Under the pieces are notes generated by a model. That model made no database searches. It saw only the letters and a list, made by a program, of their open reading frames with translations, and was not told the DNA's origin. A stretch of DNA of 64,000 nucleotides, from the NCBI GenBank assembly GCA_964461505.1, contig CAYWUW010000001.1:33792-97791 (forward strand). The letters run 5' to 3'. This stretch comes from an uncultured Candidatus Saccharibacteria bacterium. Its GTDB lineage: Bacteria; Patescibacteriota; Saccharimonadia; Saccharimonadales; HK-STAS-PATE-42. This document shows positions 1-64,000 of this stretch, piece by piece. How positions within the stretch are numbered: position 1 is the first letter of the stretch; every line of letters begins with the position of its first letter. The position numbers were made by a program, and so were the translations under genes.

Positions 1-10
1 AGCTTAAGAG

Positions 11-19
11 TGGTATAAT
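11..19 (+). promoter_or_regulatory. extended -10 box TGGTATAAT
   Basis: TGGTATAAT 36 nt upstream of ATG 55; same 9-mer recurs before many genes. Confidence 0.55.
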
Positions 20-54
20 AATTCTTAAAGATTTGAGTTTAGAGATTTTTAAGT

Positions 55-786
55 ATGGCAAGTTTTGATTTAGAACAAGTTAGGGCTTTTGAGAGTCAGT
101 ATTATAAGGAGATGCCAGATTATGTTCGCCAGGCTATAGAGCTAAGGAACAGTGGTTGGCAAGCTTTAGGTCAAGGCGATGAGAGTGGTGCTCAAGAATT
201 GGTTGATTCTGTTCAGTTGCTGGCCGATGACTATCGTGTGTTTGGGGGTGAGAATCTGACCGAGGACATGTTTAGGCATAGCCAGTTAATTAATGCGGCA
301 GGGCAGATTGAGCCTAAAGACTCTGTGGGTAACTATCAGCGAGAGATGGGAGCTAGTTTGGCAAGATTGGCACTAGTGGAGGCTTCAGGGCGAGAATTTG
401 GCGGAGCTGCTATGCTTGCTCGCGCTGCATGGAGATCTTTTTCGCCTGTACAGGGAATGATATCTGAGGAATACAGAAGAATTACTGGGGCAGGTTTTGA
501 GGATCAATACAAGAGCATATTCAGCGGTAGATTGGCCTTGGTGCTGGCCGCATCTGGTAATGCCAGAGATCTTGATTGGGCAGTGAATCTAGCTAGAGAA
601 GCAAGGAGTTTAGCAAGGATTTCGGAAGATCCAAGCAAAGTAGTGTTTGTTGATACAAAGATGACTGACGAGAAGAGAAAAGCCGCCAGAAGAAACCATA
701 AAGCTGCAGCACGGGCGGCAACGCTATCTGCCAGGGCTCCACTTTCGGTGAGTAGAAAGGTTGCGCAAAGAGTTCTTGCAGCTTAA
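55..786 (+). CDS. hypothetical protein (Ala/Arg-rich, no recognised domain)
   Basis: 243-aa ORF after a TGGTATAAT box; GC-richer than neighbours and no internal TAAGCTTA. Confidence 0.5.
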   Translation: MASFDLEQVRAFESQYYKEMPDYVRQAIELRNSGWQALGQGDESGAQELVDSVQLLADDYRVFGGENLTEDMFRHSQLINAAGQIEPKDSVGNYQREMGASLARLALVEASGREFGGAAMLARAAWRSFSPVQGMISEEYRRITGAGFEDQYKSIFSGRLALVLAASGNARDLDWAVNLAREARSLARISEDPSKVVFVDTKMTDEKRKAARRNHKAAARAATLSARAPLSVSRKVAQRVLAA

Positions 787-802
787 GTTTAGGCAAACAC
801 TT

Positions 803-862
803 TTTGACTGGATCCCCGCAACAAGTGCAGGACAGGCCTTCGCGTGCGCTTAGGATGACGGT
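803..862 (+). repeat. hairpin repeat, family A variant (TTTTGACTGGATCCCC ... GGATGACGG termini, different core)
   Basis: shares 5' and 3' ends with copies at 7041, 13311, 56223. Confidence 0.6.
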
Positions 863-881
863 AATCTTTAAGCTACTTAGG

Positions 882-890
882 TGGTATAAT
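882..890 (+). promoter_or_regulatory. extended -10 box TGGTATAAT
   Basis: GGTGGTATAATTAAG upstream of glyQS. Confidence 0.55.
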
Positions 891-905
891 TAAGTTTAAG
901 GAAAT

Positions 906-930
906 AGATCTCTCGACAGGCTCGAGATGA
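906..930 (-). repeat. inverted copy of family E core (TCATCTCGAGCCTGyCGAGAGATCT)
   Basis: reverse complement of the 7316/56095 core with one mismatch; contains ATG 927. Confidence 0.7.
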
Positions 931-2309
931 AAGGTCTAAAGTTTTTTATGGCTGAATATAAAAAGTATTCGATGGAAGATATTGTGGCTTTGTGTAAGAG
1001 GCGGGGCTTTGTGTATCCGGGTTCGGAGATTTATGGTGGTGAAGCGGGTCTTTATGATTTTGGGCCATATGGTGTGGAGCTTTTGAATAATCTTAAAAAA
1101 GCCTGGTGGCGAGCAAATGTTCAGCTTAAGCCTAACTATGTTGGGCTTGATTCGGCAATGTTCAAGAATCCTAAAGTTTGGGAAGCGAGCGGGCATACCT
1201 CTGGCTTTTCTGACCCTTTAGCGGAATGCAAAAACTGTAATCACCGAATTCGGGTTGATAAAGAACTTGAAAAAATTGGCGTTACAGCTGATGAAAAAAT
1301 GAGTGAAGCAGAGTTAAACAAACTTTTTGATGAGAATCGGGATAAAATTAAGTGTCCGAATTGTGGCAAAAAAGATTTTTCTGAAGTTAAGGCTTTTAAC
1401 TTGTTGGTTAAATCTAATTTGGGTGATTTTACGGATGAGGGGAAACGTCCGGTTTATTTGCCGGGTGAGGCTTGCCAGGGTATTTATCTAAATTATAAGA
1501 ACATTTTGGATACAACTAGGCTTAAGGTTCCGTTTGGAGTTGCGCAAATTGGTAAGGCATTTAGAAACGAGATTTCGCCACGTAACTTTTTGTTTAGAAC
1601 TCGTGAGTTAGAACAAGCTGATACGCAATATTTTATTCCACCAAATCAGAATAAAGAAAATTATGAGCGAATTAAAAAAGAACGCTGGGATTGGTATTTA
1701 AGCTTAGGAATTAAAGAAGAGAATTTGAGATGGAGGCAGCATGAGAATCTAGTTTTTTATGCTGCCGATGCTTGGGATATTGAATATGATTTTCCAACTT
1801 GGGGCTTTGATGAGATTGAAGGTCTGCATGACAGAACAGATTATGATTTAACGCAGCATATGAAGTTTTCGGGAACAGATCTAACTTATACCGATCCGCG
1901 GGACGGTGAAAAATATATTCCGTGGATTATTGAAACTTCGGTTGGTTTGGGGCGAATGTTTTTGGCATTTGTTTCTGATGCGTATCACGAGGAAGAAGTT
2001 GATGGAGAAAAAAGAGTTGTTCTTAAGCTTAAGCCAGAATTGGCGCCAATCAAAATGGTGATTTCGCCTCTGCTTAGAAACAAACCAGAGTTGGTAGAAA
2101 AAGCTAAAGAGGTTTTTGAATCTTTATCTAAAAAAGAGATGTGTGAGTATGATGATAACGGCAATATTGGTAAGCGTTATCGTCGAGCAGATGAAATTGG
2201 AGTTCCAAAATGTGTTGTGATCGACTTTCAAACTCTAGAAGATGGAACTGTAACTGTGCGCGATCGCGATACGATGGAACAGGTTAGAGCTGGGGTTGAG
2301 GAGCTGTAA
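927..2309 (+). CDS. glyQS: glycine--tRNA ligase (dimeric class II GlyQS type)
   Basis: MEDIVALCKRRGFVYPGSEIYGG..GLYDFGPYG N-terminus, CxxC..CxxC insertion, class II core. True start more likely ATG 948 or 972, because ATG 927 lies in a repeat. Confidence 0.9.
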   Translation: MKGLKFFMAEYKKYSMEDIVALCKRRGFVYPGSEIYGGEAGLYDFGPYGVELLNNLKKAWWRANVQLKPNYVGLDSAMFKNPKVWEASGHTSGFSDPLAECKNCNHRIRVDKELEKIGVTADEKMSEAELNKLFDENRDKIKCPNCGKKDFSEVKAFNLLVKSNLGDFTDEGKRPVYLPGEACQGIYLNYKNILDTTRLKVPFGVAQIGKAFRNEISPRNFLFRTRELEQADTQYFIPPNQNKENYERIKKERWDWYLSLGIKEENLRWRQHENLVFYAADAWDIEYDFPTWGFDEIEGLHDRTDYDLTQHMKFSGTDLTYTDPRDGEKYIPWIIETSVGLGRMFLAFVSDAYHEEEVDGEKRVVLKLKPELAPIKMVISPLLRNKPELVEKAKEVFESLSKKEMCEYDDNGNIGKRYRRADEIGVPKCVVIDFQTLEDGTVTVRDRDTMEQVRAGVEEL

Positions 2310-2318
2310 TAGCTCCTC
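2298..2318 (+). terminator. possible stem-loop at glyQS stop
   Basis: GAGGAGCT-GTAAT-AGCTCCTC, 8-bp stem enclosing the TAA; weak T tract. Confidence 0.3.
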
Positions 2319-2326
2319 AATTTATG

Positions 2327-2335
2327 TGCTAAACT
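2327..2335 (+). promoter_or_regulatory. extended -10-like box TGCTAAACT
   Basis: 7 nt before ATG 2343; same box at 9509 and 19342. Confidence 0.45.
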
Positions 2336-2342
2336 TAAGTTT

Positions 2343-2711
2343 ATGAATGAAGTTGCGACTAGAAAAGATCTGAAGAAGGTGGAAGATAAGCTTGATAACC
2401 GTATGGATAAGTTGGATCTCCGTATGGACAAATTTGATGCGCGTATGGAAAAGCTTGATGCATCTATTTCTGATTTGACTGATATTATTAAATCTTTTAT
2501 GCAGCAGGTGGACGAGCGTTTTAATAAGGTGGAAGAGAGGCTGGATCGACTTGAAGAAAGTCACGAGCAGTTGCTCAGGACGATTGATTCTTTTATCAAT
2601 AGAATGGAGGAGCATGATGTCGCGAATCATACTAGAGACAGCAAATATGATAAGTTGTTGGCTTGGGCCAGGAAGGTTTCTGAAAAAACTGGAATTCCGT
2701 TGGATATCTAG
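2343..2711 (+). CDS. coiled-coil protein, hypothetical
   Basis: heptad-like DKLDxRMDK repeats; 122 aa. Confidence 0.55.
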   Translation: MNEVATRKDLKKVEDKLDNRMDKLDLRMDKFDARMEKLDASISDLTDIIKSFMQQVDERFNKVEERLDRLEESHEQLLRTIDSFINRMEEHDVANHTRDSKYDKLLAWARKVSEKTGIPLDI

Positions 2712-2822
2712 TTCTTAGACTACTAGGATGATATTGTTATGCGTGGTTCAGAGTTATCTTAAGCTTAAGCTAACGCGGTGAATATTTAGTGGGGCGGAGG
2801 AATTTGTTGTGGGTTCTTCTAA

Positions 2823-3092
2823 CTAATTCCCCGTGCTTGGCTGCGGATTCTTTTTGATCTTAGCCCATTCTTGATCAGTGTTGAACTTTGGCCATTTTTC
2901 TTCTCGCTCTGTTAAACTTAACCATTCGATGATGTAGCAAAAGTTTTGCATATCGCCGATTTCTTCATCCCAAATGATTAGAACTTTAATTCCGTGACGC
3001 TGCATAATAGGCAGAGTATGTTTTTCAAAGCGTTCGTGAAAAGCTCTTCTGGCATTGTTCGGGATTTCGTAAGTTCTGAGTTCGTGAATCAT
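2823..3092 (-). CDS. NIPSNAP-family protein
   Basis: MIHELRTYEI..FHERFEKHTLPIMQRHGIKV pattern typical of NIPSNAP domains. Confidence 0.6.
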   Translation of the reverse strand: MIHELRTYEIPNNARRAFHERFEKHTLPIMQRHGIKVLIIWDEEIGDMQNFCYIIEWLSLTEREEKWPKFNTDQEWAKIKKNPQPSTGN

Positions 3093-7194: not shown

Positions 7195-7302
7195 CTAGAG
7201 TTTGTTAAGCTTAGCTTTCTTTTCCTCTTGCGTAGCATGGGTCCCGGCCTGCGCTGGGATGATTTAGAAAGGAGTGGGGGTGACGTGATGGGAACTTAAG
7301 TT

Positions 7303-7354
7303 TAGCCTAAGAATTGTCATCTCGAGCCTGCCGAGAGATCTCTATGGGTTTCAG
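7303..7354 (+). repeat. repeat family E copy
   Basis: TAGCCTAAGAATTGTCATCTCGAGCCTGCCGAGAGATCTCTATGGGTTTCAG; copy at 56082, inverted core at 906. Confidence 0.85.
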
Positions 7355-7444
7355 CATGGGCACCTTTCTGTTATCCCGGCACTGAAATTAATTCAGCATA
7401 AACTCTGGCCGGGATCCAATCAATAGAGAAATCATCTTTTATCC

Positions 7445-7471
7445 TTCTTTTTTCAAAAAAGAAACAAAAAC
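7445..7471 (+). repeat. repeat family C (TTCTTTTTTCAAAAAAGAAACAAAAAC palindrome)
   Basis: copies at 10991 and 47140. Confidence 0.8.
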
Positions 7472-7477
7472 TTTTGC

Positions 7478-7559
7478 ACTGCGGAAGCTACGCTTAAGCT
7501 TAATATAGAATCTAGACCTTACTAGCTCGCTCCATCCTCGGGCGAACTTGTTGGACGAT
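7478..7559 (+). repeat. repeat family D, about 82 bp
   Basis: CTGCGGAAGCTACGCTTAAG...CCTTACTAGCTCGCTCCATCCTCGGGCGA; second copy at 13127. Confidence 0.85.
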
Positions 7560-7669
7560 CTTGGAAAGAACAATATCTCGCCACCAAGCTTAACTGAAAA
7601 GCCCCAGAGCGTCGTTATCTTTACGAAAGGGGGTTTAGTTTAAGATGTCCGTTGTGTCTTTTGATTGGG

Positions 7670-7678
7670 TGGTATAAT
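7670..7678 (+). promoter_or_regulatory. extended -10 box TGGTATAAT
   Basis: 9 nt before ATG 7688, implying a 2-3 nt leader. Confidence 0.6.
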
Positions 7679-7687
7679 AACAGGGAT

Positions 7688-9001
7688 ATGGGAAAACGTA
7701 GGAATAAGAAGTTTGAGCCTTATGTGATTGAAGATCTGGCTTTAGAAAAGTTTGTGAATGGTGGGCAGGCGCTGGGTTATTCTAGCAAAGAATCTGGTGA
7801 GAAGCCGGTTTTTGTGTGGGGAGCTTTGCCTGGCGAAAAAGTTGATGTGCTGGTTACAAAATCTAGAAGAGGGGTTTTGGAAGGTCTGGCTGAAAGCATT
7901 AAGCTTAAATCTCTAAAAAGAGTTGAGCCACAAAATGAGTATGAATATTTAAGTACAAGTCCGTGGCAAATTCTAGATTCTGGTTTTGAAAATGAGGTTA
8001 AACTTAATTTGCTCAAACAGACTTTTCGGCACGAGGCTGGCATTGATTTAAGTGAGATCGACTTCTATTCTGGAGATGAAGAATATGGTTATCGAAACAA
8101 GATGGAGTATAACTTTTGGGGCGATGAGGGCGGAATTCACTTGGCTTTGCATAAGCGTGGTTCTGGGCAAAAGATTAAGCTTAAGGGTTCGGTTCTGGCT
8201 TCTGATGCAATTAATAAAGCAGGAGAAGATCTGGTTACTAAGCTTAATTCTCTCGGGATTTTTGCAGGAGATTTGAAATCTGTAATTTTTAGATCTAACC
8301 GAAAAGGGGAGTGCGTGGCGGCCCTTTTTGTTAAGAAAGAAGATTTTAAGGAATTCGAGGTTCCAGAAAATCTAAAAGGTTTGGTTTGTTATTATTCTAA
8401 TCCTAAATCTCCGGCCTCTGTTATTACTAAAGAACTGTGGGCTCTTGGTGATATTAAGCTTAGTGATCAAATTCTTGAAAATGAGATTTGGTATGATGTT
8501 AATTCTTTTTTTCAATTAAATATTCCTGTTTTTGAAGAGGCGTTAAAAGATATCAAAAAGTTCTTAGCCACTAAGCTTAATGTTGTGGATTTTTACGGAG
8601 GTGTTGGCAGTATTGGGATTTCTGTAGCTGGTGAAAATAATTTAGAGATTGTGGAACTTGATGGGCATAGTTCTAAAATGGCGAAACAAAATATTGCTAA
8701 GCTTAATTTTGGCGGCAGTGCAAGAATCTGGAATCTTTCTGCCGAGGATTCTTTAGAAAAAATTGTGCAAGATTCTGTTTTGATTGTGGATCCGCCTCGG
8801 GCTGGGTTGCACAAGAAAGTTGTTCAAAAGATTGCGGAGGTTAAGCCTGGGCAGTTGATCTATTTAAGCTGTAACCCTGTTACGCAAGCTCGAGATTTAA
8901 AAGAGATTATTGATGCTGGTTATAAAATTAAGCTTGCTAGAGGTTACAACTTCTTTCCGAAAACTCCGCATATTGAGAGTTTAGTTATTTTGGAGCGTTA
9001 A
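7688..9001 (+). CDS. RNA (uracil-5)-methyltransferase, RumA/TrmA family
   Basis: N-terminal TRAM-like region, DPPRAGL, YLSCNPVTQARD. Start set at ATG 7688, downstream of the -10 box. Confidence 0.8.
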   Translation: MGKRRNKKFEPYVIEDLALEKFVNGGQALGYSSKESGEKPVFVWGALPGEKVDVLVTKSRRGVLEGLAESIKLKSLKRVEPQNEYEYLSTSPWQILDSGFENEVKLNLLKQTFRHEAGIDLSEIDFYSGDEEYGYRNKMEYNFWGDEGGIHLALHKRGSGQKIKLKGSVLASDAINKAGEDLVTKLNSLGIFAGDLKSVIFRSNRKGECVAALFVKKEDFKEFEVPENLKGLVCYYSNPKSPASVITKELWALGDIKLSDQILENEIWYDVNSFFQLNIPVFEEALKDIKKFLATKLNVVDFYGGVGSIGISVAGENNLEIVELDGHSSKMAKQNIAKLNFGGSARIWNLSAEDSLEKIVQDSVLIVDPPRAGLHKKVVQKIAEVKPGQLIYLSCNPVTQARDLKEIIDAGYKIKLARGYNFFPKTPHIESLVILER

Positions 9002-9526: not shown

Positions 9527-10285
9527 ATGAGTGAGGTGAAGAAGTTGGGGTATCGGGGGGTTTTTGATCTGAGTAATCCGGATCCATTTAGAATCTCGCG
9601 TTCTAAAATCGATCTTTTTTTGAATTGTGAGCGATGTTTTTGGTTGGAGGTTAGAAAAGGAATTAAACGTCCGCCTGGCTTTCCGTTTAATATTAATTCG
9701 GCAATTGATGAGCTCTTAAAACGTGAGTTCGATGTCTATCGCTTAGAAAAAAAACCGCATCCGATTATGATTGAAAATAAGCTTAGTGGAGTAATTCCGT
9801 TTGAGCATGAAGATATTGAAGTTTGGCGCGAGAATTTTACGGGGATTCAATATTATGATGAGGCACTAAACTTAATTATTTTTGGAGCGGTGGATGATAT
9901 CTGGGTTAATGGGGCAGGGGAGTTAATTGTGGTTGATTATAAATCTACCTCTAAAAAAGGAGAGGTAACACTTGATGCTGATTGGCAGATTGGCTATAAA
10001 AGGCAGATGGAATGTTATCAGTGGTTGCTGAGGCAAATTGGATTTAAGGTTAGTGACACTGGTTATTTTGTGTATGCAAATGGAGATAGCAGCGCGGAAG
10101 GGTTCTTTAATGAAGTTAAGTTTAATACAAAATTGATAAGTTACAGTGGTAATGATGAGTGGGTGGGGCCAACTCTTGTTAAGCTTAAAAAGTGTATGGA
10201 AAGTGATGAGATGCCAAAGTTTGGCGGTGCTTGCGAGTATTGTAAGTATGTGGGCGAGAGGTTGAAGTTAAGCTGGGGGAGTTAG
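9527..10285 (+). CDS. PD-(D/E)XK nuclease, Cas4/RecB-like with Cys cluster
   Basis: CERCFW near the N-terminus, D..VVDYKST core, C-terminal CEYC. Confidence 0.65.
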   Translation: MSEVKKLGYRGVFDLSNPDPFRISRSKIDLFLNCERCFWLEVRKGIKRPPGFPFNINSAIDELLKREFDVYRLEKKPHPIMIENKLSGVIPFEHEDIEVWRENFTGIQYYDEALNLIIFGAVDDIWVNGAGELIVVDYKSTSKKGEVTLDADWQIGYKRQMECYQWLLRQIGFKVSDTGYFVYANGDSSAEGFFNEVKFNTKLISYSGNDEWVGPTLVKLKKCMESDEMPKFGGACEYCKYVGERLKLSWGS

Positions 10286-14770: not shown

Positions 14771-17700
14771 TTGAAAGTTTCTAAAATAAACTTGAAGGCT
14801 GGAAAGTCTGATAAATCTGAAGGGGCAAAAGCTCTAAAAAAGTTACCAAAAAAGCCTAGAAAGCAATTGGGCAAATCTAAGCTGGATGGCGATTTAAAAT
14901 CTTCTAAAAAATCAATCAGAAGGGTTGCTAAAAAAACGTTGGGCGATCCGCAAGATCAGGCTTTAAGGCGAATGCGCAAGGTTGCGGCGCAAATTAATAA
15001 GTTGGAGCCGAACTATAAAGATCTTAGTGATAAAAAGCTGAAAGAGGAATCGCTTAAGCTTAGGGAAAGGGCGCAGAATGAGGATTTGGATAAGTTGTTG
15101 CCAGAAGCTTTTGCGCTGGTGCGGGAGAGTTCCAGAAGAAAACTTGGGCAAAGGCATTTTGATGTACAGCTGATTGGTGGAATGGTTTTGCATGAAGGGA
15201 ATGTGGCCGAGATGAAAACTGGTGAGGGTAAAACTTTGATGGAAACTTTGCCAGTTTATCTAAATGCTTTAAGCGCAAAAGGAGTGCATGTGGTTACGGT
15301 GAACGATTATCTGGCGCAGCGTGATGCCGGATGGATGGCGCAGATTTATGATGCGCTGGGGATGAGCGTGGGGGTGATAATTCCAGATCAATCTTTTGTT
15401 TATGACTCTAAGTTCGAAAATAAAGAACATATTGATGAGCGTTTTTGGAACTTAAGGCCAGCAACAAGAAGAGAAGCATATGAGGCAGACATAACTTACG
15501 GAACAAATAATGAGTTCGGCTTTGATTATCTTAGGGATAATATGGTTGAATCTGCACAGCAACTTAGGCAAAGAGATCTTAATTTTGCGATTGTTGATGA
15601 GGTAGATTCAATTTTGGTAGATGAGGCGCGAACTCCGTTGATAATTTCTGCGGCAGCTAGTGAAAGCGGAGCCGGCTATAGATTGTTTGCAGAAATTGCA
15701 ACACACTTTGAGCCAGAAGATTATGTTCTGGAAGAAAAAAGAAAAGCCGTAAACTTAACAGATGCAGGAATCGCGAAAGTAGAGAAGCTCTTGGGAATTG
15801 AGAATCTGTATGATCCAAAAAATGTGCATCACATTTACCATTTAGAGCAAGCTCTGCGGGCACAAACTTTGTTTAAGCGCGATAAAGATTATGTTGTTGC
15901 AAAAGATGGCGAAGTGATTATTGTGGATAGCTTTACAGGGCGTTTGTTGCCAGGAAGAAGATATAGCGAAGGCTTGCATCAGGCTTTAGAGGCAAAAGAG
16001 GCGGTAAGAGTTCAAGAAGAAAGCGTAACGCTTGCAACAATTTCATTCCAAAATTATTTTAGGCTTTATGAAAAGCTGGCTGGAATGACGGGAACGGCCA
16101 AAACGGAGCAAGAAGAGTTCCAGCAGGTTTATGATATGGCGGTGATTGAGGTTCCGCCAAACAGAAAATTGATGCGAAAAGATCTAAACGATAGAATTTA
16201 TGCAACCGAAAAAGCTAAGCTTACGGCGATTGTAGAAAAGGTTAAAGAATTAAGCTTAGCAGGGCAGCCGGTTCTGCTGGGAACGGTTTCTATCGAAAAA
16301 AATGAACTTTTGAGCGGCTTGTTAAGTTCTGCTGGAGTTAAGCACAATGTTTTAAATGCGAAGAATAACGAGGGCGAGGCTCTGGTTGTTGCAAAGGCGG
16401 GCCAAAAAGGGGCGGTAACTTTGGCTACGAACATTGCAGGGCGCGGAACAGATATTGTTTTAACCGACGAGGTTAAAGAACTGGGCGGTTTGTTTGTTCT
16501 GGGTTCTGAAAGGCATGAATCTCGTAGAATTGATAATCAGCTAAGAGGCCGTTCTGGGCGCCAGGGAGACCCGGGAACTTCTCAGTTCTATATTTCTGCA
16601 GAAGATGAATTGATGCGTGTGTTTGGTGGTGAAACTCTGGCTGGTTTGATGGTGCGATTGGGGGCAGATTCTGAAGAACCGATTGAGCGCAGGTCAATCT
16701 CTCGTGCAATTGAGCGAGCTCAAAAACTGGTTGAAGGAATGAGTTATGATGCGCGTAAAAATGTTGTTCAGTATGATGATGTGATGAACAGGCATCGGCG
16801 CGCGGTGTATTCTAGCAGAAAAGCAATGCTTAGGGCAGAAGAAAACGAGCGTGTTGAAAAGCTTATTGCAGATGCGGCAAGTGGCGCGGCTCAGGATTCT
16901 AGCAATCTTTTATTAAGCTTAGCATTAAGTGAAGAAAAGGCGGATAGAAAAGCTCTGCCAGAAGCGCTGGAGCTTTTGGATAATCAGTTTAAGCTTAAAA
17001 AGAATGATCTTGAAGAAATCAAAAAGTTACTTAAGCTTAGCGATTCCGATTACGAAAAAGAGGAAGAAACTAAAGAGGGGGTAACTAAACTATCTTTAAG
17101 AAGAAGAGTTACTAGAATTCGCCCCAAAAGCATTGTTAGCGGGGCTAAGCTTAAGCTTAAAAAACGCAAACGCAATAAGAATTTGGCAAAAAAGAGGAAA
17201 TCTACTGCTAAAAATATTGCAAAGATTTTGAACCAATCTTTTGCGGCTGCGATGGAAAAGTTTTCTAAAGATTTAAGCTTAGAAGCTAGCTTTGGATTCC
17301 AGCGTTTAGCTTATCTTAAAATTTTAGATGAGCTGTGGATGCAACATCTTGAAAATATGCAGCACCTTCGTGAGGGAATCGGCTGGAGAAGTGTTGGGCA
17401 AAAAGATCCGTTGGTGGAATATCGTTTTGAAGGGCAGAGAATTTTTGAAGAGATGATGAAGAATCTTAGAATGGAACTTGTTTTTAATTTGACTTCTGCT
17501 AACCCGAAGAGTGTGGCGAATTTGCGGATGGAAACGGAACTTACTAAAGCGGCGGGGCACGCAATTGAAAATGCTGATGAAATTACAAATACTCAAAAAG
17601 AATTTGAAGCGGATGATTTTAGCGGATCGACTCGGGTTATAGAACTTGCAGAAAACGGTGAAGAACTTGTGGTTGAGGCAAAAAGTTCTAAGGGCGCCAC

Positions 17701-17785
17701 TCAAAGTAAGGCTGCATCTACAAAAAGCGCGAAGAAGAAATCTAAAAAAAAGCAAAGGCAAAACCGCAAAAAGGGCAGAAAGTAA
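14771..17785 (+). CDS. secA: preprotein translocase ATPase SecA (Lys-rich N- and C-terminal extensions)
   Basis: MKTGEGKTL Walker A, VTVNDYLA, DEVDSILVDEARTPLIIS, TNIAGRGTDI. TTG start after AGAGGAGAG. Confidence 0.93.
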   Translation: MKVSKINLKAGKSDKSEGAKALKKLPKKPRKQLGKSKLDGDLKSSKKSIRRVAKKTLGDPQDQALRRMRKVAAQINKLEPNYKDLSDKKLKEESLKLRERAQNEDLDKLLPEAFALVRESSRRKLGQRHFDVQLIGGMVLHEGNVAEMKTGEGKTLMETLPVYLNALSAKGVHVVTVNDYLAQRDAGWMAQIYDALGMSVGVIIPDQSFVYDSKFENKEHIDERFWNLRPATRREAYEADITYGTNNEFGFDYLRDNMVESAQQLRQRDLNFAIVDEVDSILVDEARTPLIISAAASESGAGYRLFAEIATHFEPEDYVLEEKRKAVNLTDAGIAKVEKLLGIENLYDPKNVHHIYHLEQALRAQTLFKRDKDYVVAKDGEVIIVDSFTGRLLPGRRYSEGLHQALEAKEAVRVQEESVTLATISFQNYFRLYEKLAGMTGTAKTEQEEFQQVYDMAVIEVPPNRKLMRKDLNDRIYATEKAKLTAIVEKVKELSLAGQPVLLGTVSIEKNELLSGLLSSAGVKHNVLNAKNNEGEALVVAKAGQKGAVTLATNIAGRGTDIVLTDEVKELGGLFVLGSERHESRRIDNQLRGRSGRQGDPGTSQFYISAEDELMRVFGGETLAGLMVRLGADSEEPIERRSISRAIERAQKLVEGMSYDARKNVVQYDDVMNRHRRAVYSSRKAMLRAEENERVEKLIADAASGAAQDSSNLLLSLALSEEKADRKALPEALELLDNQFKLKKNDLEEIKKLLKLSDSDYEKEEETKEGVTKLSLRRRVTRIRPKSIVSGAKLKLKKRKRNKNLAKKRKSTAKNIAKILNQSFAAAMEKFSKDLSLEASFGFQRLAYLKILDELWMQHLENMQHLREGIGWRSVGQKDPLVEYRFEGQRIFEEMMKNLRMELVFNLTSANPKSVANLRMETELTKAAGHAIENADEITNTQKEFEADDFSGSTRVIELAENGEELVVEAKSSKGATQSKAASTKSAKKKSKKKQRQNRKKGRK

Positions 17786-30492: not shown

Positions 30493-31551
30493 TTATTCGG
30501 CGAGTTGGAAGGTGGCGGTTGCGACGCGCTTGAATTTTGGTTTGGATTGAAGATTTAAGACGATGGTTGTTTCGCGAACTTGGCGATATCTTAATACTCC
30601 ACGAATAATCTCATCTCTGTGCATCGGTTTGTTATCGTTATCTTTCAAAACTTTTTCGATAACATCTTCAACTGTTCCTTCGATGTGTCCCCATTCTTTA
30701 AGTGCGTATCGGCCGCGTCCAACTAAAACGTAGCGTGCGTCGCGAATAAGTTCGTTGTGGGTGGCTTGAATTGTAAAGTTACGCTTGGCAAAGGTTGGAT
30801 CGTTTTGAATGGCTTGGTAAATTTCGCTAAAGTGCATTGGTTCCTTTTTCTCGCTTAAAACGATGTAGATTTTATCTTTAATGCTTTTAGGATTAACAGA
30901 AGACCAGCTTTTTAGACCCCAGAGGCCTTTTCTTTCGTAGGTGTTGTTAGAAACAAGAATTTTGGTTTCGATTTCTTCTTCTGATTCTTTGAGGTTGTAA
31001 GACTTTTTAAGTTCAGAGATAGAAATTGGCTTTTTGTTTTCGGTTAGAACATTGACGATGCGGTCAACCTCTTTTAGAGCTTCGGATGGGCTTTTGTAGT
31101 GATTGGCTAAAACAGCGCTAGAGGTGTAATTATCAGATTCTTCGATAAGCATTAGGCGGCTTGAAATAAGTGCGATGAATGAGTTTTGGGCTATAACTTC
31201 TTTGCTCTCGCCTTCTGAGGCTAGAACTCCGAGTTGCTTGATGGCGCAGATTCCGCCTCTTGATTCGATTAATTTGGCAAGTTTATCTTCGTATGCTGCA
31301 AAGCCTTCTAATTTGCCTTCTTCGGCTTTAACTTGGAGGCGGATGACGATTCCTTTTTCTAGCTGACGGATGCGTTCTCTGGTTACGCCGTATTCTTTGC
31401 CGATTGCATCAAGAGTCTTTTTTTTGCCGCCGAGGCCAAATCTACCGGTGATGATGTCGCGTTCGCGATCTTTGTATAAATCTTCTAAGATGCTGCTTAC
31501 GAGTTTGGTCAACTCGGTTTTTTGTGCTTCGGTGTTATTTTTTTCTGCCAT
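30493..31551 (-). CDS. sigma-70 region-4-like HTH protein with C-terminal HARE-HTH-like domain
   Basis: GKEYGVTRERIRQLEKGIVIRL resembles sigma region 4.2; C-terminal IYIVLSEKKEPMHFSEIYQAI resembles HARE-HTH. Confidence 0.55.
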   Translation of the reverse strand: MAEKNNTEAQKTELTKLVSSILEDLYKDRERDIITGRFGLGGKKKTLDAIGKEYGVTRERIRQLEKGIVIRLQVKAEEGKLEGFAAYEDKLAKLIESRGGICAIKQLGVLASEGESKEVIAQNSFIALISSRLMLIEESDNYTSSAVLANHYKSPSEALKEVDRIVNVLTENKKPISISELKKSYNLKESEEEIETKILVSNNTYERKGLWGLKSWSSVNPKSIKDKIYIVLSEKKEPMHFSEIYQAIQNDPTFAKRNFTIQATHNELIRDARYVLVGRGRYALKEWGHIEGTVEDVIEKVLKDNDNKPMHRDEIIRGVLRYRQVRETTIVLNLQSKPKFKRVATATFQLAE

Positions 31552-34291: not shown

Positions 34292-34300
34292 TGTTATAAT
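34292..34300 (+). promoter_or_regulatory. extended -10 box TGTTATAAT
   Basis: followed by AAGCTTAAGCTTAA; upstream of ATG 34358. Confidence 0.45.
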
Positions 34301-34357
34301 AAGCTTAAGCTTAAAATAAGTTTAGCGCAAAAGTACAGTTAATTATAGAAAAGTTTT

Positions 34358-35577: not shown

Positions 35578-36441
35578 TTAGGCGATATCCCATTGGCCAG
35601 GAGCGATTTGTTGGATAACTCCTTTAATTTCGAGCATGGTTAAAGTAGAAGAAAATTCGGTGGTGCTCTGCCCTGTTTGGAGGTGTAGTTCATCAGCGGA
35701 ATGAGTTCCGGTTTTAATAAGCTTAAGTAGCTCGGCTTCGTTATGATTTTCTGGTTGATACTGCTTTAGTTTGCTGGCTTTAGTGTTCATGCCGAGTGCT
35801 TCAAGAACATCTGCGGCAGATGTTACTGGCACAGCCCCTTGCTTAATTAAGTTGTTTGGGCCGGCGCTCATGGGGTTATCGATGGCGCCTGGAACAGCGA
35901 GAACAAGACGGTTTTGTTCTAGTGCAAATTGAGCTGTAATTAGAGTTCCGCTTTTAGCTGCACATTCTACAATTAAAACAGCCTCGCTGATTCCGCTTTG
36001 AATTCGGTTTCTGGCAATAAAATTTTGCTTGAGTGGAGGCATGCCTTGTTCGTATTCTGTAATGATGGTTCCGCCGTTCAAAAGGATGCGCTGGGCTAAA
36101 TTAAGGTTAGTAACTGGGTAGATCTGATCGATTCCGCTTGCCATGATGGCGATAGTTTTGCCACCGGCATCAAGAGCTGCTTTGTGAGCTAAGCCGTCGA
36201 TTCCGATGGCTAGGCCGCTGACGATGGCTATGCCGGAGGCGGCGAGTTCTTGCACAAGCTGATTAACAATCTTAATTCCATATCTGGTTGGCTTGCGAGA
36301 ACCTACTACAGTAAGGTATTTTTCGGTTGGGTTAAGCTTAGCTCCCTTTAACCATAAGCGTTGTGGTGGATAAGCTATTTCTTTCAGTAGTGTTGGATAT
36401 TCTAGTGATTTGTTTGTAATTTGGCGGATTGGTATTGGCAT
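35578..36441 (-). CDS. dprA: DNA-processing protein DprA (Smf)
   Basis: VVGSRKPTRYG, SGLAIGIDGLAHKAAL, VPGAIDNPMSAGPNNLI. Confidence 0.88.
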   Translation of the reverse strand: MPIPIRQITNKSLEYPTLLKEIAYPPQRLWLKGAKLNPTEKYLTVVGSRKPTRYGIKIVNQLVQELAASGIAIVSGLAIGIDGLAHKAALDAGGKTIAIMASGIDQIYPVTNLNLAQRILLNGGTIITEYEQGMPPLKQNFIARNRIQSGISEAVLIVECAAKSGTLITAQFALEQNRLVLAVPGAIDNPMSAGPNNLIKQGAVPVTSAADVLEALGMNTKASKLKQYQPENHNEAELLKLIKTGTHSADELHLQTGQSTTEFSSTLTMLEIKGVIQQIAPGQWDIA

Positions 36442-41138: not shown

Positions 41139-42854
41139 TTAGGAAATCCAGATGAGGGTGAGGGCGAGATCTTCGTAACTTAAGTTTAGGCCAGATTTAA
41201 GCGCAGCGGCTTGAAGATCTTTTAGAATGTAGCGAGAGGCGAGATCTAATTTTTTGTTCTGTTGAATAATCTTTTTTAAAGAATTAATTTGCTTGGCGGG
41301 TGGTTTTAGGTTGCTAAACTTAAGAAGTTCTTTTTTGGGCTGTGGAGATTCGTGAATGTATCTAGCTAAATGGTTGATGGCGGTTTGGGTTTTAATCTGG
41401 CGTTCTTGGCAAACCTCTGCAATGCTTTTGCCCGAAAGAATAAGCTTAACGGTTGTTTTGTGGCTATCTTTTTGGCCTTTGCCACCAATCTTTTTTTGAA
41501 TCGGTTGGTTTTGGATTGGTTCGGCTTTTAAAGTTCCGCCAAATTTTTTGATGGATTTTTCAATATTTTTGGTGATTTCTGCTGGCTTAAGTTTAGTGAA
41601 TCTTGCGGAGGCGAGATCTGAATGTTTGGAAAGTTGCTGATTAATTTTAAGAATGCTCGGATTGATTTGGAGCGACATCTGGTTAAATTCTTCTAGAAAT
41701 AAGCCTTCTAAACTTTTAACGCGCGAAAGTGCAACGTAGCCCATTCCATATTCAAAAACTTTGCCCAGGTTGATGTAGGCGGAATCTAGGCTCATGCCTT
41801 GGCTTTTGTGAATGGTGATGGCCCAGGCTAGGCGCAAAGGAATTTGTTCGATGCTGGCAAGATCTTGGCCTTTTTCATCTTGGATAGACCAGGTTTCGGG
41901 TTCTGCAATAATTAACTTTTCGTCAAGAGTTTGGATGATCGGCCAGTTGGTTTCTTTTTTAAAATTAATAACTTTGCCGCGAGTTCCGTTAACGTAGCGT
42001 CCGGATTGATCGTTTTTAACAAACATAACTTCGGCTCCAACTTTAAGCTTAAGTTCTTGTGGGGCTAGGCAAGATTTGAGCAGGCTTTGCACAAGGGCGA
42101 GTTTGCCGGAATGCGTGGTTGTGTAAAGCTCTTCTTTAGAATTAAGCTTAGTAAGTTCGATATCGTTGATAAAATCGACATCTTGATTGTGGCTGTAGAG
42201 TTTGGTTGTGGCAAGAGCGTGGGTTGTAAAAATTCTGTTGTTTAAAGTTTTGATATTATCTGCTGTGGGCTGCCCTGCTCTAATGTTATTTAGAATTAAG
42301 CTTAGTGCGTCGGTTTGGTTTTGGCGGTGTTGTTCTTGCAGGTAACAGATAACTGGTTTAAGTTCGCTCCAGGCCCCAGAATGAACGACCATTTGCAGTT
42401 TGCTGCCTCTTTCTTTAGAGATTGGTGGGAGCTGGAAGAGATCTCCACACAAAATAACTTGTAAGCCACCGAATGGGAGTTCACTTTCCTTCATATGTTG
42501 GCAAATTAAGTTTAGATTATCAAAAAAGCTGGCGCTTAGCATTGAGATTTCGTCGATAATTAGAATTTTGGTTTGGTTGAAGCGCTTTTGGAGTTCTTTC
42601 TTCTTGGAAAGTTTTTCGAGATCTGCTTTGGTTATCTGATCTTTAATGCCGATTCCAGACCAGGAATGAATGGTGGTTCCGCCGATGTGGGTGGCGGCGA
42701 TTCCGGTGGAGGCGGTGATGGCGATGCCAATGCGGTGTTCTTTAGCCCAAGTGATGAATTTGTTTAGGGTGTAGGTTTTGCCGGAACCTGCCTGGCCTGT
42801 TAAAAAGATGTTGTAGCCCATCTGCATGATGGGCAGAGCTTGGGATTGGAGCAT
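41139..42854 (-). CDS. PIF1/RecD-like ATP-dependent DNA helicase with C-terminal HTH region
   Basis: LTGQAGSGKT, IIDEISM, CGDLFQLPP, ITIHKSQGMS. Confidence 0.75.
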   Translation of the reverse strand: MLQSQALPIMQMGYNIFLTGQAGSGKTYTLNKFITWAKEHRIGIAITASTGIAATHIGGTTIHSWSGIGIKDQITKADLEKLSKKKELQKRFNQTKILIIDEISMLSASFFDNLNLICQHMKESELPFGGLQVILCGDLFQLPPISKERGSKLQMVVHSGAWSELKPVICYLQEQHRQNQTDALSLILNNIRAGQPTADNIKTLNNRIFTTHALATTKLYSHNQDVDFINDIELTKLNSKEELYTTTHSGKLALVQSLLKSCLAPQELKLKVGAEVMFVKNDQSGRYVNGTRGKVINFKKETNWPIIQTLDEKLIIAEPETWSIQDEKGQDLASIEQIPLRLAWAITIHKSQGMSLDSAYINLGKVFEYGMGYVALSRVKSLEGLFLEEFNQMSLQINPSILKINQQLSKHSDLASARFTKLKPAEITKNIEKSIKKFGGTLKAEPIQNQPIQKKIGGKGQKDSHKTTVKLILSGKSIAEVCQERQIKTQTAINHLARYIHESPQPKKELLKFSNLKPPAKQINSLKKIIQQNKKLDLASRYILKDLQAAALKSGLNLSYEDLALTLIWIS

Positions 42855-48413: not shown

Positions 48414-48466
48414 TTTTTTTGTTTTGTTTGGCTCTTGCTGCTTTTAAGCTTAAGCTTAGCATAAAG

Positions 48467-58970: not shown

Positions 58971-58980
58971 TAAGCTTAGT

Positions 58981-60759: not shown

Positions 60760-60761
60760 GC

Positions 60762-61439
60762 TTAGACTGGGCTAGTATATCTTTTTTGCTCACAGAAGAT
60801 GTCGAGCTCTTCTACTATCTCTGTATGAACTTCATTAACGTCTTTTGTCTGGCCAACTGTCTCAGGGTGAATTGTGACGACTTGGATGCCCGAGGTTCTG
60901 CTGTAGTTGGCCAGCGTATTTGCCATCTGCCCAAAGGCTTCTGCTACTCTTGCGTGAAAGTCTCTACCGGCTTGTTCGAATCTATCTAGTTCTCGGTCCA
61001 TCCTTCTAGCTAATTCTTCTGGCGGTGGAGGAGTTAGTAGGAACATTAGATCTGGCATAATTAGATTGGGGTTCATTAAGTTTATATCTAGTATGTGCTG
61101 CTCACCAAGGCCTCTTCCTGCCCCCTGATAAGCTATGCTTGAGACGAAAGTTCTATCAGAAATAACGTGCCTTCTTGCTTTGAGGCTAGGCTTAACGACT
61201 TCTGCCATGTGTTGTGCTCGATCGGCAGCCATAAGGTAAACTTCGGACATTGGATCGAGTTCGCCAGTTTCTGGGCTCAAGAGAATCTCTCTAAGCTTAG
61301 CTCCAGCTAGAGTTCCACCAGGCTCTCTCGTTAAAATTGCAGAGCTGCCGATTCTACTTGTAAGCAGCATAGCTTGTGTGGATTTTCCACTTCCTTCGCC
61401 TCCTTCAAAAGCAATGTAAAGTGGTTTGTTTTGTGGCAT
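60762..61439 (-). CDS. tmk: dTMP kinase
   Basis: IAFEGGEGSGKSTQ P-loop. ATG 61439 is preferred over the longer ORF start at 61523, which overlaps the upstream gene. Confidence 0.85.
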   Translation of the reverse strand: MPQNKPLYIAFEGGEGSGKSTQAMLLTSRIGSSAILTREPGGTLAGAKLREILLSPETGELDPMSEVYLMAADRAQHMAEVVKPSLKARRHVISDRTFVSSIAYQGAGRGLGEQHILDINLMNPNLIMPDLMFLLTPPPPEELARRMDRELDRFEQAGRDFHARVAEAFGQMANTLANYSRTSGIQVVTIHPETVGQTKDVNEVHTEIVEELDIFCEQKRYTSPV

Positions 61440-61464
61440 ATAGGCTTTAATCACTCCTTTCTTG

Positions 61465-62820
61465 TCATTTTTCTGTGATGTCGTGATCTCCTCTTTTGGT
61501 GTCGAAAGGGGCACCGGATTCATCTAAATGGAGGGTTAAATTCAAGGTTTCTTTGAGTAGCCTTCCGGCTTCCAGGGCTCTTGTTCTGAGGGTTGGGTGG
61601 ACGGCAGTTGTTGAACGGAGCTCTAGCAAGTAAGTTAAGCCGGGCAAACCGCCGGTGACTTGGCATGGGATTCTGTAGCCCATTGGTATTGCATACTGGG
61701 CCAATCTTGGATCTATATTGCTCGTAGATATTCTGCTAGCAATGCTTCCGATTAGCCCCTGCGCTTCTGCCCTTAAATCTTCTGGCATTTGTTCTAGGTA
61801 CCAAGGTTCGAACCCTAACTCAGTTCCAAGCAATGGCATGCGGATTGTTACGGCGCGGTGCCTTTGAATATCTCGGTAACTGGCAAAATCTAGCGGAAAA
61901 CTTAAGCTTAAGGCTCCAAGCTCGTCGAGGAATTTTGGGAGTTCATTTTTGGCTAGACGTGAGGCCATTAGCCCTCGACACTTTTCAAGTTCTTCCCGAT
62001 TAAGTTTAGTTAAGTCAATTCGGAGCTCTTCTGGCATACTTGCTGTATCGAGTAGGTACTTATCATTTAGCCATGCCTGAGTGTACGCCTCTTGCTCGGG
62101 GTATCTTTTTTGTGGATCAAATGAGTTTGGATGCGCCTGAACAAGAGCTGCTTCTAGGGAGTCTGCTATGGAGCGCACCTCCGGCAAAGGATGATTTCTT
62201 AGAATGAGTAGGCGATCTCTAGCTTGTCTTAAATCTACATTCCAAGCAACGTTGGTAGAGGCTCCGGCTGGCAGTAAGCTTCTTAAAATATCAAAAGCCC
62301 TAGCATTAATTGCCTTTTCCCACTTGACACCTTCGTTGTTAACATCTGGGAACTGCTTTTTAAGGTGTTCGACTGTAGGTTCCATACCAGTGATGTATAG
62401 AGCTCTTAGCTCCTCTTGGATATTGCCTATAAGCCCAGTGTTTTTTGGAACTATAAAAGGTTGTTTACTGAAATCGATGTACCTGGTGGAGCATTCTTGG
62501 CCTCTGTATAGCGGGTAGTCTTGGATTGCTTTCGCGGCGAGCATGCTAATTCCTTCTACAAAGATAGCTGTGTTACCACAATCTCCAATGCTACCATGAC
62601 CATAGCCAACATAAAACTGGGACATAAAGTCGCCACTGCCCTTTTCTGCCAGCTTTGCTAGGTGGCTAGCTATTCCCGCAGGGCTTCGAGAATGCAGTGC
62701 CATAAGCATGGCTTGATCTTCTGGGCTGATCGTAGCGCCCGTACCAAGCACGAAGATTTGAGCGCCTTTTACTCCATTATCTACGGGAACTTCAGTGTGC
62801 TTTAGTGTTTCGGTGGCCAT
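61465..62820 (-). CDS. ThyX-like FAD-dependent thymidylate synthase, long two-lobe form (tentative)
   Basis: GHGSIGD..ECSTRY in the first half and RDIQRHR in the second; immediately upstream of tmk. Confidence 0.5.
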   Translation of the reverse strand: MATETLKHTEVPVDNGVKGAQIFVLGTGATISPEDQAMLMALHSRSPAGIASHLAKLAEKGSGDFMSQFYVGYGHGSIGDCGNTAIFVEGISMLAAKAIQDYPLYRGQECSTRYIDFSKQPFIVPKNTGLIGNIQEELRALYITGMEPTVEHLKKQFPDVNNEGVKWEKAINARAFDILRSLLPAGASTNVAWNVDLRQARDRLLILRNHPLPEVRSIADSLEAALVQAHPNSFDPQKRYPEQEAYTQAWLNDKYLLDTASMPEELRIDLTKLNREELEKCRGLMASRLAKNELPKFLDELGALSLSFPLDFASYRDIQRHRAVTIRMPLLGTELGFEPWYLEQMPEDLRAEAQGLIGSIASRISTSNIDPRLAQYAIPMGYRIPCQVTGGLPGLTYLLELRSTTAVHPTLRTRALEAGRLLKETLNLTLHLDESGAPFDTKRGDHDITEK

Positions 62821-62919
62821 AATCCTGTAGATCTTTTTTTAGCTCAACTTCGGCTTTCTTTTTTATTAAGCTTAATTGTAGTTTAGGTTTGGTGCTTCTG
62901 GCTAGGTTTGTTGTGAGGT

Positions 62920-64000
62920 TTATTTGGTTGAGTTTGTTTTGCGGGCGGTATGGCTACGGTGCACAAAAGCTAGGGCTACTAAAGGAGCCAGCATCAAGGC
63001 TGTAAATAGAGTTATAAGTGCTAGATTACCGGTTTTAGGGGCTTTGATTGTTGTGATTGTAGGATTGTCGTTTGTTGCTTTTGTAATGCCTATTTCAATA
63101 ATCTTAAATTTGTTAGCGCTTGGGTCAAAAGCGAGCCCCCATAAATTATCATCAGGCCCATTACGCAAATGTGTTACGTATAAAGCTGGAGGTGGTAGTT
63201 GATATGTTTGGTATGTTCCGTCTAGGCTTAAAGTTCCTATGGAACTTATTCCTCCAAACCAGATCTGGTTATCTTTTGCTAATATTAAATTGCTAGAAAC
63301 CTGGCTCGAGCTTTCAAATTCTGTTACTTGGCCAGATGAATTGATGTTAGCAAAATATGATTTAAAGCCACTTTGACCTGCCTTGTTAGAAACTCCCCAT
63401 AAGTTACTATTGCTCTGAGAAGTTAAATTTGTGCCGACTGTAGTTCCTTGTTGCGTAGCATAAGTTTGGTAGTTTCCATCTGCCGAGATAGAACCAAAAA
63501 CTTTATTTGAAGAGTGGTATGGTACACCGCTGAACAACAAACTTTCGTTTGGTCCAGCTTCTGCATTCATGACAAAACCAAAACCTTCAATGTTATATTG
63601 GTTTGTAATGGTACCGTTTTGCGGGTTTATCTTAACTACTAAACCACTAGACTGAGTATCGCAGGTGTTAACATCACCTCCATAGCCCCACAAACTTCCG
63701 CTTGGTGTAAAAGTTAGCCCTGTAATGTTTTGAGGACAACCTGGTTCAAGATCTGGAATAGAATAAGAGTAATTAGTTATGGTGCCGTTAGGGCTTATCT
63801 TTCTTAAATAACTAATCTTATTTTGAGTGTTTCCGGCAATATATTCAGCGGTGGTGAGCCAGATGTTATCTTGGCCATCTATAGATAATAAACCTAAAGT
63901 TTCTTGAGTGGTTTGAGGAGATGTGTCTACGGTGGTTAGAACTTGTTCTGTGAAGCTTTTATCTGATGTTTTAAATCTGACTATTTTATTTTCTGCCCGA
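62920..64000 (-). CDS. cell-wall-anchored beta-propeller-like surface protein (sortase substrate, APKTG), 5' end outside the window
   Basis: repeated ..GPDDNLWG / DNQIWFGG blades, C-terminal APKTG then TM then RSHTARK. The frame stays open to position 64000. Confidence 0.7.
   Translation of the reverse strand, partial: RAENKIVRFKTSDKSFTEQVLTTVDTSPQTTQETLGLLSIDGQDNIWLTTAEYIAGNTQNKISYLRKISPNGTITNYSYSIPDLEPGCPQNITGLTFTPSGSLWGYGGDVNTCDTQSSGLVVKINPQNGTITNQYNIEGFGFVMNAEAGPNESLLFSGVPYHSSNKVFGSISADGNYQTYATQQGTTVGTNLTSQSNSNLWGVSNKAGQSGFKSYFANINSSGQVTEFESSSQVSSNLILAKDNQIWFGGISSIGTLSLDGTYQTYQLPPPALYVTHLRNGPDDNLWGLAFDPSANKFKIIEIGITKATNDNPTITTIKAPKTGNLALITLFTALMLAPLVALAFVHRSHTARKTNSTK

Follow-up and report, generated by a model that had tools for sequence, protein, structure and literature searches.

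The closest described counterparts of the element reported here are the highly iterated palindrome HIP1 (GCGATCGC) and the alternative iterated palindromes of cyanobacteria, together with the DNA uptake sequences (DUS) of Neisseria and the uptake signal sequences (USS) of the Pasteurellaceae. HIP1 has published densities of 300-2,700 copies per Mb and observed/expected ratios of 55-228 (PMC4390886). Its function went unresolved for decades and is just beginning to be tied to transformation: HIP1 boosts transformation, an effect that depends on methylation, and is now put forward as an uptake signal. Here we describe a motif with the 8-bp core TAAGCTTA that recurs throughout a 64-kb stretch of DNA from a Saccharibacteria (TM7) bacterium (the window, meaning the whole stretch analysed). 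It is a hyperabundant, independently sited, site-by-site conserved, protein-altering and lineage-restricted element, and the reading that we favour, tentatively, is that it is an iterated near-palindrome of the HIP/USS kind, probably spread by a molecular drive linked to natural transformation and recombination.

The preliminary description of this DNA had named HIP1 and the uptake sequences as comparators, and the features shared with each bear out that choice. As in HIP1 and the other cyanobacterial palindromes, an 8-bp palindrome carries a palindromic 10-bp extension, its density (2,297 per Mb) and observed/expected ratio (46-90) compare with the HIP1 ranges, its sites lie in coding and non-coding DNA and are conserved at orthologous positions beyond background, it has been lost in some lineages of the motif-rich group, and a link to natural transformation is possible. 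It is nevertheless not HIP1: found in Patescibacteria/Saccharibacteria rather than in a cyanobacterial genome, it is an unrelated AT-rich sequence with a HindIII core (AAGCTT) and a TAA triplet that forbids one reading frame, one of its half-sites is strict and the other relaxed, and its one-off variants cluster at the central C/G and the outermost positions of the 10-mer, whereas the centre of HIP1 is its least variable part. Its range is also narrow and patchy instead of phylum-wide, and a cognate methyltransferase is not among the genes of the window. With DUS and USS it shares a length of about 10 bp, a density of about one or more copies per kb, a clade restriction like that of a dialect, a preference for poorly conserved amino-acid positions with inflation of the encoded tripeptides, an enrichment of one-off variants, a naturally competent host phylum with DprA encoded in the window, and signs of what may be recent recombination between motif-sharing lineages.

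The novelty lies in the phylum, which is new for an iterated motif of the HIP/USS type, and in the sequence itself, which is AT-rich with a HindIII core and follows a distinctive half-site rule. The literature on AAGCTT, uptake sequences or methylomes in Saccharibacteria or Patescibacteria, and that on over-represented palindromic octamers, yielded no description of the motif, as the preliminary description had supposed, and the raw sequence returned primer and cloning matches only.

Abundance, anatomy and independence of the sites

The window is the 64 kb of the source genome analysed, and 7-23 kb were compared for each relative. TAAGCTTA, with 147 copies (2.3 per kb), is the top-ranked 8-mer of the window and contains 78% of the copies of AAGCTT, itself the top-ranked 6-mer (n = 188, with TTTTTT behind); CAAGCTTG is absent and AAAGCTTT occurs twice. 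Dinucleotide shuffles of the window gave 3.18 ± 1.68 copies (maximum 7) and Markov models of order 0, 2 and 3 predict 1.6, 3.9 and 7.3, the observed/expected ratio being 90 at order 0, 46 for the dinucleotide shuffles and 20 at order 3. In 56 confident protein-coding sequences (CDSs) there are 101 copies, as against 5.7 ± 2.2 under synonymous-codon shuffles that keep the proteins (z = 43) and 2.0 ± 1.4 under permutation of codon order. These counts confirm a hyperabundance that is real and extreme, far outside codon-preserving shuffles as had been claimed, and its density and enrichment are those of the HIP class (hundreds to thousands per Mb, tens-fold over expectation; Elhai 2015). A hand count of ten copies in 7201-9000 was slightly generous: eight are exact (7206, 7495, 7900, 8176, 8239, 8455, 8572 and 8698), and the other two are partial only, AAGCTTAA at 7586 and TTAAGCTT at 8928.

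The same figures bear on the idea that the motif is a by-product of amino-acid or codon usage, or an artefact of assembly or library construction such as a HindIII linker, to which we assign a negligible probability. K-L and L-S-L are common peptides, and nothing else speaks for it; shuffles that keep protein and codon usage fall far short of the CDS count, the non-coding density exceeds the coding density, and independent assemblies (other runs, JGI) carry the motif in frame at orthologous sites.

The coding copies are confined by the motif itself. As it contains a TAA stop, one coding phase is impossible, and the 101 copies read as xxT-AAG-CTT-Axx (x-K-L-x) in 71 cases and as YTA-AGC-TTA (L-S-L) in 30, with TAA in frame in none. 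The preliminary description had placed copies in all three frames; there are two phases only, its K-L-K and A-K-L strings being one and the same phase. The density of TAAGCTTA is about 2.0 per kb in CDSs and 3.7 per kb outside them, the CDS value being about two-thirds of the non-coding one and near what is expected if the stop-containing phase alone is barred. Within genes, K-L is written AAG-CTT in 85 of 199 cases, the preferred Lys codon being AAA, and 29 of 38 L-S-L tripeptides are written YTA-AGC-TTA.

Counts of longer and variant forms define the unit more closely. Among 10-mers, counted as double-stranded sites, TTAAGCTTAA occurs 56 times and TTAAGCTTAG / CTAAGCTTAA 74 times, but CTAAGCTTAG only twice against 11.5 expected (p = 7e-5). 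The central-transition variants of the 8-mer, TAAGTTTA (41 copies) and TAAACTTA (22), are each about 12-fold enriched, and the others of its 24 single-base variants reach at most about 7-fold over the zero-order expectation. It is this central transition that forms the degenerate sibling of the motif; the 12-mer proposed earlier for that part, AAACTTAAG(T/C)TT, is rare, with 5 copies. When T-variants are oriented with the T on the top strand, TTAAGTTTAG accounts for 30, TTAAGTTTAA for 18 and CTAAGTTTAA for 1 (p = 3e-8). The unit is therefore TTAAGYTTAR, in which one half is a perfect TTAAG and the other is YTAAR with both of its ambiguous positions changeable; its perfect form is TTAAGCTTAA, and the window holds 178 double-stranded sites, or 2.8 per kb. 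The same half-site rule holds in an independent lineage, L337. Thus the strict palindrome of the preliminary description survives as a near-palindrome with a slight asymmetry.

The asymmetric forms lie on the + strand in 61% of cases, compared with about 65% predicted by composition, and show no bias relative to transcription. The half-site asymmetry in the counts follows neither from symmetric deamination of methyl-cytosine nor from strand or composition skew, and deamination alone was rejected as the source of the T-variants because of the 30:1 flank asymmetry. Judged from the counts, just such an asymmetry would be expected if a DNA-binding protein tolerated some departures from its site and not others.

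These features can also be read around methylation. In this account, which we rate as possible but rather unlikely, the motif is the target of an orphan methyltransferase (core AAGCTT or AGCT, perhaps the full 8-10 bp), transformation has no role, and density is selected for a chromosomal function, either strand discrimination in mismatch repair (Elhai's HIP1 model) or nucleoid organization (Xu et al.). A palindrome with a HindIII/AluI-type core suits it, as does a density that falls within the HIP1 range. That density is also near that of Dam sites in E. coli. Moreover, of the one-off changes to the 8-mer the central C-to-T alone is strongly enriched, which would suit a methylated cytosine, although symmetric methylation with subsequent deamination would predict neither the 30:1 asymmetry of the T-variants nor the depletion of CTAAGCTTAG. 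A methylation-centred function and the transformation-linked drive that we favour are not mutually exclusive.

Spacing is Poisson-like, with a coefficient of variation of 0.93 compared with 0.98 ± 0.08 under random placement, which counts against the methylation-centred account, and regular spacing was rejected for the 64-kb window. Nor does the motif have the skewed architecture of Chi or KOPS, with their replication strand bias: its core is palindromic and its asymmetric variants are skewed only as composition predicts. Double units exist, as had been noted, but at corrected coordinates: AAGCTTAAGCTT at 17147, 34301, 43309 and 48446, and CTTAAGCTTAAG at 2022, 2758, 20422, 22120, 59185 and 61901.

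Each copy is a site in its own right. Composition next to the 147 copies departs from background at two positions only, -1 (T 102, C 36) and +8 (A 92, G 48), and the 19-nucleotide flanks have a mean pairwise identity of 0.31, exceeding 60% in 0.009% of pairs. In comparison with orthologues, about 90% of sites have no indel close by, and the roughly 10% that do, compared with 3-5% of controls, indicate that sites favour variable regions yet arise by substitution; an origin by insertion was rejected on the same ground. Given unrelated flanks and mostly no neighbouring indel, the copies are independent sites made by substitution and not one repeat family, as the preliminary description had held. 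They occupy genes and spacers alike and, as in the HIP class, have a palindromic extension of the core, here YTAAGCTTAR with its half-site asymmetry.

Copies of a dispersed repeat or mobile element (REP, MITE or Correia-like), or of an inserted palindromic element, would share extended sequence beyond the core, and the copies in the window do not: their flanks are at background beyond ±1 bp, and the sites sit in frame within conserved housekeeping genes, mostly away from indels. A pattern scan of metagenomes did yield true repeat arrays containing TAAGCTTA (in L243, L228 and L256). For the window, however, a repeat family is as improbable as an artefact, and the tests run exclude both.

A patchy distribution among Saccharibacteria

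All relatives of the source bacterium by SecA are Saccharibacteria/Patescibacteria. Closer relatives were recovered through a protein index, and TTAAGYTTAR was compared with expectation by summing matches on both strands, which gives 234 observed against 3.4 expected in the window. Enrichment is likewise strong in L081 (38 against 0.6; L081/L082 come from two Logan runs, SRR14932633 and SRR14932545, with 2.6-3.0 TAAGCTTA per kb), in L083 (Logan; 17 against 0.5; 1.7 per kb) and in L337 (51 against 1.4; 33 TAAGCTTA in 21 kb), a locus at 723337-744507 of the 744,507-bp contig Ga0498924_0000005 (JGI 3300048586). It is weak in L339 (JGI; 14 against 1.1; 8 TAAGCTTA in 23 kb), in L085 (17 against 1.6; L085/L086 belong to the complete 692-kb genome CP060233.1, with 0.25-0.3 TAAGCTTA per kb) and in L084 (Logan; 6 against 0.8; 0.1 per kb), and absent from L338 (Logan; 1 against 0.6; 0.06 per kb). 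In an identity matrix, the window clusters with L081 and L083, and L337 is sister to the motif-poor L084, L085 and L338, so the trait is patchy among the closer relatives. This patchy loss resembles the loss of HIP1 that accompanies loss of its methyltransferase, another point for the methylation-centred account.

None of 80 loci with SecA identity of 70% or less is enriched, none having more than 4 TAAGCTTA in up to 23 kb, and no other iterated palindrome was found in those 80 loci; in the four relatives of this kind (SecA identity about 70% at most) whose TTAAGYTTAR matches were set against expectation, there was likewise no enrichment.

In the weakly enriched lineages, the frequency of the T-variant roughly equals or exceeds that of the intact site, which looks like decay of the motif. 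The complete genome CP060233.1 (GCA_023898665.1; GC 37%) is labelled Candidatus Nomurabacteria but is a Saccharibacteria relative by SecA and synteny; at its locus AAACTTAA is the top-ranked 8-mer and there are more T-variants (16) than intact sites (7), giving it the look of a decaying motif field. The L337 contig, a public sequence of near-genome length from a second motif-rich lineage, is the best resource for finding the responsible gene.

Wider pattern searches gave other things. In viral contigs the pair pattern found chance pairs only; among the matches listed for the triple pattern in metagenome and viral contigs were tandem or iteron-like arrays and other repeats, with no further HIP-like Saccharibacteria contig, and the YTAAGCTTAR rule does not hold in L132, L157, L299 or L220. 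L243, L228, L256, L235 and other Ga03079xx contigs carry dense arrays of units of about 11-12 bp, such as aaatTTAAGCTTAaatttaggcttaaa, amid a conserved gccgtggcctggaccc box; these arrays are iteron- or satellite-like, contain TAAGCTTA by chance and are unrelated to the phenomenon in the window. L299 (3.1 kb, GC 0.47) and L220 (5.9 kb, GC 0.30) each have eleven TAAGCTTA with unrelated flanks and without T-variants, and may represent a different iterated-palindrome system, perhaps organellar.

Conservation of sites and alteration of proteins

Motif sites are kept at orthologous positions well beyond expectation, the controls being octamers in the same phases. Between the window and L083 (73% nucleotide identity), 7 of 19 sites are conserved, compared with 11-12% of control octamers; for the diverged part of L081 the figures are 6 of 11 and 23%, and for L337 (69% nucleotide identity) they are 13 of 41 (13 of 26 counted from the L337 side) and 8.7% (p = 3e-5). 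Orthologous sites are thus retained 3-4 times more often than controls, as in the HIP class, where orthologous-site conservation exceeds background (Xu et al. 2018). Identity extends to the whole 10-mer at most of the 13 sites shared with L337. The 30-nucleotide flanks of these shared sites are 66% identical, compared with a gene mean of 69% and with 74.5% at other conserved octamers. As the flanks are less conserved than the gene, the sharing comes neither from protein constraint nor from recent transfer, and the motif itself is what is kept; recombination was rejected as the cause of the shared sites for the same reason. The claim of active maintenance made in the preliminary description therefore stands, on a 3-4-fold excess over controls in two separate lineages and flanks below the gene average. 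Sites conserved amid poorly conserved surroundings have also been reported for HIP1, and on this point the methylation-centred account does well.

The motif-poor relatives differ from the motif by 2.9 mismatches at sites shared between the window and L337 and by 4.0 at lineage-specific sites, a gradient that fits ancestral sites decaying after loss of a driver.

The sites also rewrite the proteins that carry them. At motif codons, 42% (L084) and 54% (L085) of amino acids match the motif-poor orthologue, compared with 69-70% elsewhere in the same genes, and aligned motif octamers differ from those orthologues at 3.5-4.0 positions, as against 2.7 for controls. In the same set of orthologous genes the window encodes L-S-L 13 times and its relatives 2-3 times (a 4-6-fold difference), and K-L 64 times compared with 44-48. 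Motif sites thus overwrite variable amino-acid positions and alter the encoded proteins. Findlay and Redfield reported uptake sequences to behave in this way, with sites at poorly conserved residues and inflated tripeptides (PMC2817400), and here, as for DUS and USS, the pattern is specific to a clade.

This evidence weighs on a further explanation, that a neutral mutational or repair bias, through very-short-patch-type or other context-specific repair, converts near-cognate sequences into a motif that does nothing. We consider it improbable. It would accommodate coding and non-coding densities near what the reading frame allows, the enrichment of one-off variants and the override of the preferred Lys codon. 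However, a bias of the single-mismatch type cannot write sites that differ from motif-poor orthologues at 3.5-4 of 8 positions, a Vsr-like bias should deplete the T-variant instead of leaving it 12-fold enriched, and two lineages whose DNA has diverged by about 31% retain identical sites. The Dcm/Vsr repair bias of enterobacteria, in E. coli a modest effect that depletes the T-containing variant, is similar in being context-specific, in being able to raise the frequency of a methyltransferase target and in acting at a C/T position within a palindrome; the motif in the window differs from it in being 46- to 90-fold enriched, in its enriched T-variant and in lying several positions from the ancestral sequence. 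For HIP1, Xu et al. took the same kind of conserved-site result as evidence against a pure repair bias.

A possible role in transformation, and the genes of the window

Under the transformation-linked reading, a protein with sequence specificity, probably acting as a dimer, would read the double-stranded sites; it would need one perfect TTAAG half and tolerate transitions in the other (YTAAR). This protein would belong to the natural-transformation/recombination pathway, perhaps partnered by a cognate methyltransferase along the lines proposed for HIP1. Fragments bearing the motif would be preferentially taken up or recombined, homologous replacement would spread motif-bearing alleles through the population, and sites would pile up wherever protein function tolerates K-L or L-S-L. 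This molecular-drive model is the one used for USS and DUS, and it would predict that, once the recognizing factor is lost, sites are no longer renewed and decay. We favour the link to transformation because the phylum is competent, the window encodes DprA, proteins are affected much as they are by uptake sequences, the distribution is like that of a dialect and HIP1 has its own transformation results. Saccharibacteria have been shown experimentally to be naturally competent via ComEC, and their phylum conserves com and type IV pilus genes (PMC10633639).

A more specific proposal, which we advance with some hesitation, is that TTAAGYTTAR may serve as a self-recognition or uptake signal in this clade of Saccharibacteria, acting via a dimeric receptor or a cognate methyltransferase, and would be an independent, palindromic reinvention of the DUS/USS/HIP1 principle; lineages would gain or lose the recognizing factor and their genomes would fill with the tag or let it decay. 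To our knowledge, neither an uptake-specificity sequence nor a ComP-like receptor has been described in the Patescibacteria. The CtsM system of Campylobacter jejuni, in which methylation of RAATTY marks self DNA in transformation, offers a precedent: there too a short AT-rich palindrome is a self mark for transformable DNA, an analogy that would reconcile a palindromic shape with a role in transformation. RAATTY differs in being a 6-mer that is common by composition, and we know of no evidence that it has been driven to hyperabundance.

Several observations weigh against the transformation-linked reading. First, DUS and USS are not palindromic but asymmetric, strand-oriented motifs, often in inverted pairs at terminators, whereas the motif here is near-palindromic, lacks strand orientation and needs no such pairs. 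Methyltransferases and dimeric enzymes classically target palindromes built around a restriction site, and a methylation-centred function explains the symmetry at least as well; part of the excess of central C-to-T variants could likewise reflect deamination of a methylated cytosine. Second, direct selection for a chromosomal function would account for the conservation of sites no less well than drive does. Third, the 64-kb window encodes no uptake receptor, pilin or ComEC. Neither did Pfam scans, of 20 window proteins that had not been placed by synteny, together with annotation of the others by synteny, find a DNA methyltransferase, restriction enzyme or Vsr/MutH-like gene in the window; the lack of a methyltransferase there also counts against the methylation-centred account. 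Finally, all comparison genomes are metagenome assemblies, and the 5.9-kb tract described below could be an assembly chimera, though it recurs in two runs.

Genes for ComF and the pilus are likewise missing from the window, no prepilin signature was found there, and a regular expression for DNA-methyltransferase motifs returned only PD-(D/E)XK false positives across 89 Saccharibacteria loci. The only competence gene of the window is dprA, found where the preliminary description had placed it (Table 1) and itself carrying motif copies at 35718 and 36333.

Table 1. Coordinates of motif sites, genes and the shared tract in the window
Feature	Position	Strand	Remarks
Motif-site field	1..64000		147 TAAGCTTA and 178 double-stranded TTAAGYTTAR sites
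Tolerated T-variant TTAAGTTTAG, example	783..792	+	TTAAGTTTAR: 48 sites across the window; CTAAGTTTAA: one
Shared site in the RumA-like gene, example	7900..7907		10-mer identical in L337; motif-poor relatives differ at 5-6 of 10 positions
Sites common to the window and L337 (starts)	7900, 8176, 8455, 8698, 10180, 12752, 12908, 13907, 14121, 15055, 19810, 22577, 24197
PD-(D/E)XK_1 nuclease-family gene	9527-10285	+	84-86% identical to L084/L085 orthologues
secA	14771-17785		Clade SecA about 1,000 aa
Overlapping double unit TAAGCTTAAGCTTA in secA	17146..17159		Identical 14-mer at 34300-34313 and 48445-48458
Tract shared with L081/L082	17519..23401		5,883 bp, 100% identical; both flanking sides about 80% identical
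Gene with sigma-70 region 4 and HARE-HTH	30493-31551	-	352 aa
dprA	35578..36441	-	Natural-transformation recombination mediator; PF02481, E = 1.5e-72; DprA_WH
PIF1-type helicase	41139-42854		Pfam scan

The tract shared with L081/L082 spans the end of secA, an M16 peptidase gene, a prfB-like gene, two hypothetical genes and rsmH, and runs into the next open reading frame of 114 amino acids. The SecA of L081/L082 is 85% identical to that of the window at the protein level, and the tract looks like a recent homologous exchange between two motif-rich lineages, unless it is a recurrent assembly chimera. Its breakpoints show no association with the motif, the nearest copies being about 245-295 bp away.

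The system could be exploited in several ways. First, a second, unrelated iterated palindrome in an experimentally competent phylum would provide an independent test of whether such motifs tag DNA for uptake, recombination or methylation. Second, close relatives that range from saturated through decayed to motif-free form a natural experiment, and as both a motif-rich 744-kb contig and a motif-poor complete genome are public, a comparative gene-presence screen for the responsible factor is directly possible. Third, the motif might, if placed on donor DNA, raise the efficiency of transformation in Saccharibacteria and other bacteria of the candidate phyla radiation, where genetic tools are scarce. 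More broadly, a drive acting at the level of DNA would here be rewriting protein sequence in an already minimal genome, and the motif may show how naturally transformable Saccharibacteria mark their own DNA.

Other features of the window are of separate interest. The PD-(D/E)XK_1 nuclease-family protein is the most conserved of the region and, being present in motif-rich and motif-poor relatives alike, is not a motif-specific factor. The gene that combines sigma-70 region 4 with HARE-HTH encodes an unusual DNA-binding architecture. Most Saccharibacteria homologues of SecA have about 870 amino acids and cover 65-66% of the clade form, whose greater length implies extra segments, including a Lys-rich N-terminal stretch; that stretch may instead reflect a mis-called TTG start. 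Finally, GC skew is uniformly positive across the window (+0.09 to +0.32 per 4 kb; G 16,044 and C 10,286) and stays positive where genes turn to the minus strand after about 29 kb, which indicates that the whole window lies in one replichore with an unusually strong enrichment of G+T on the leading strand.

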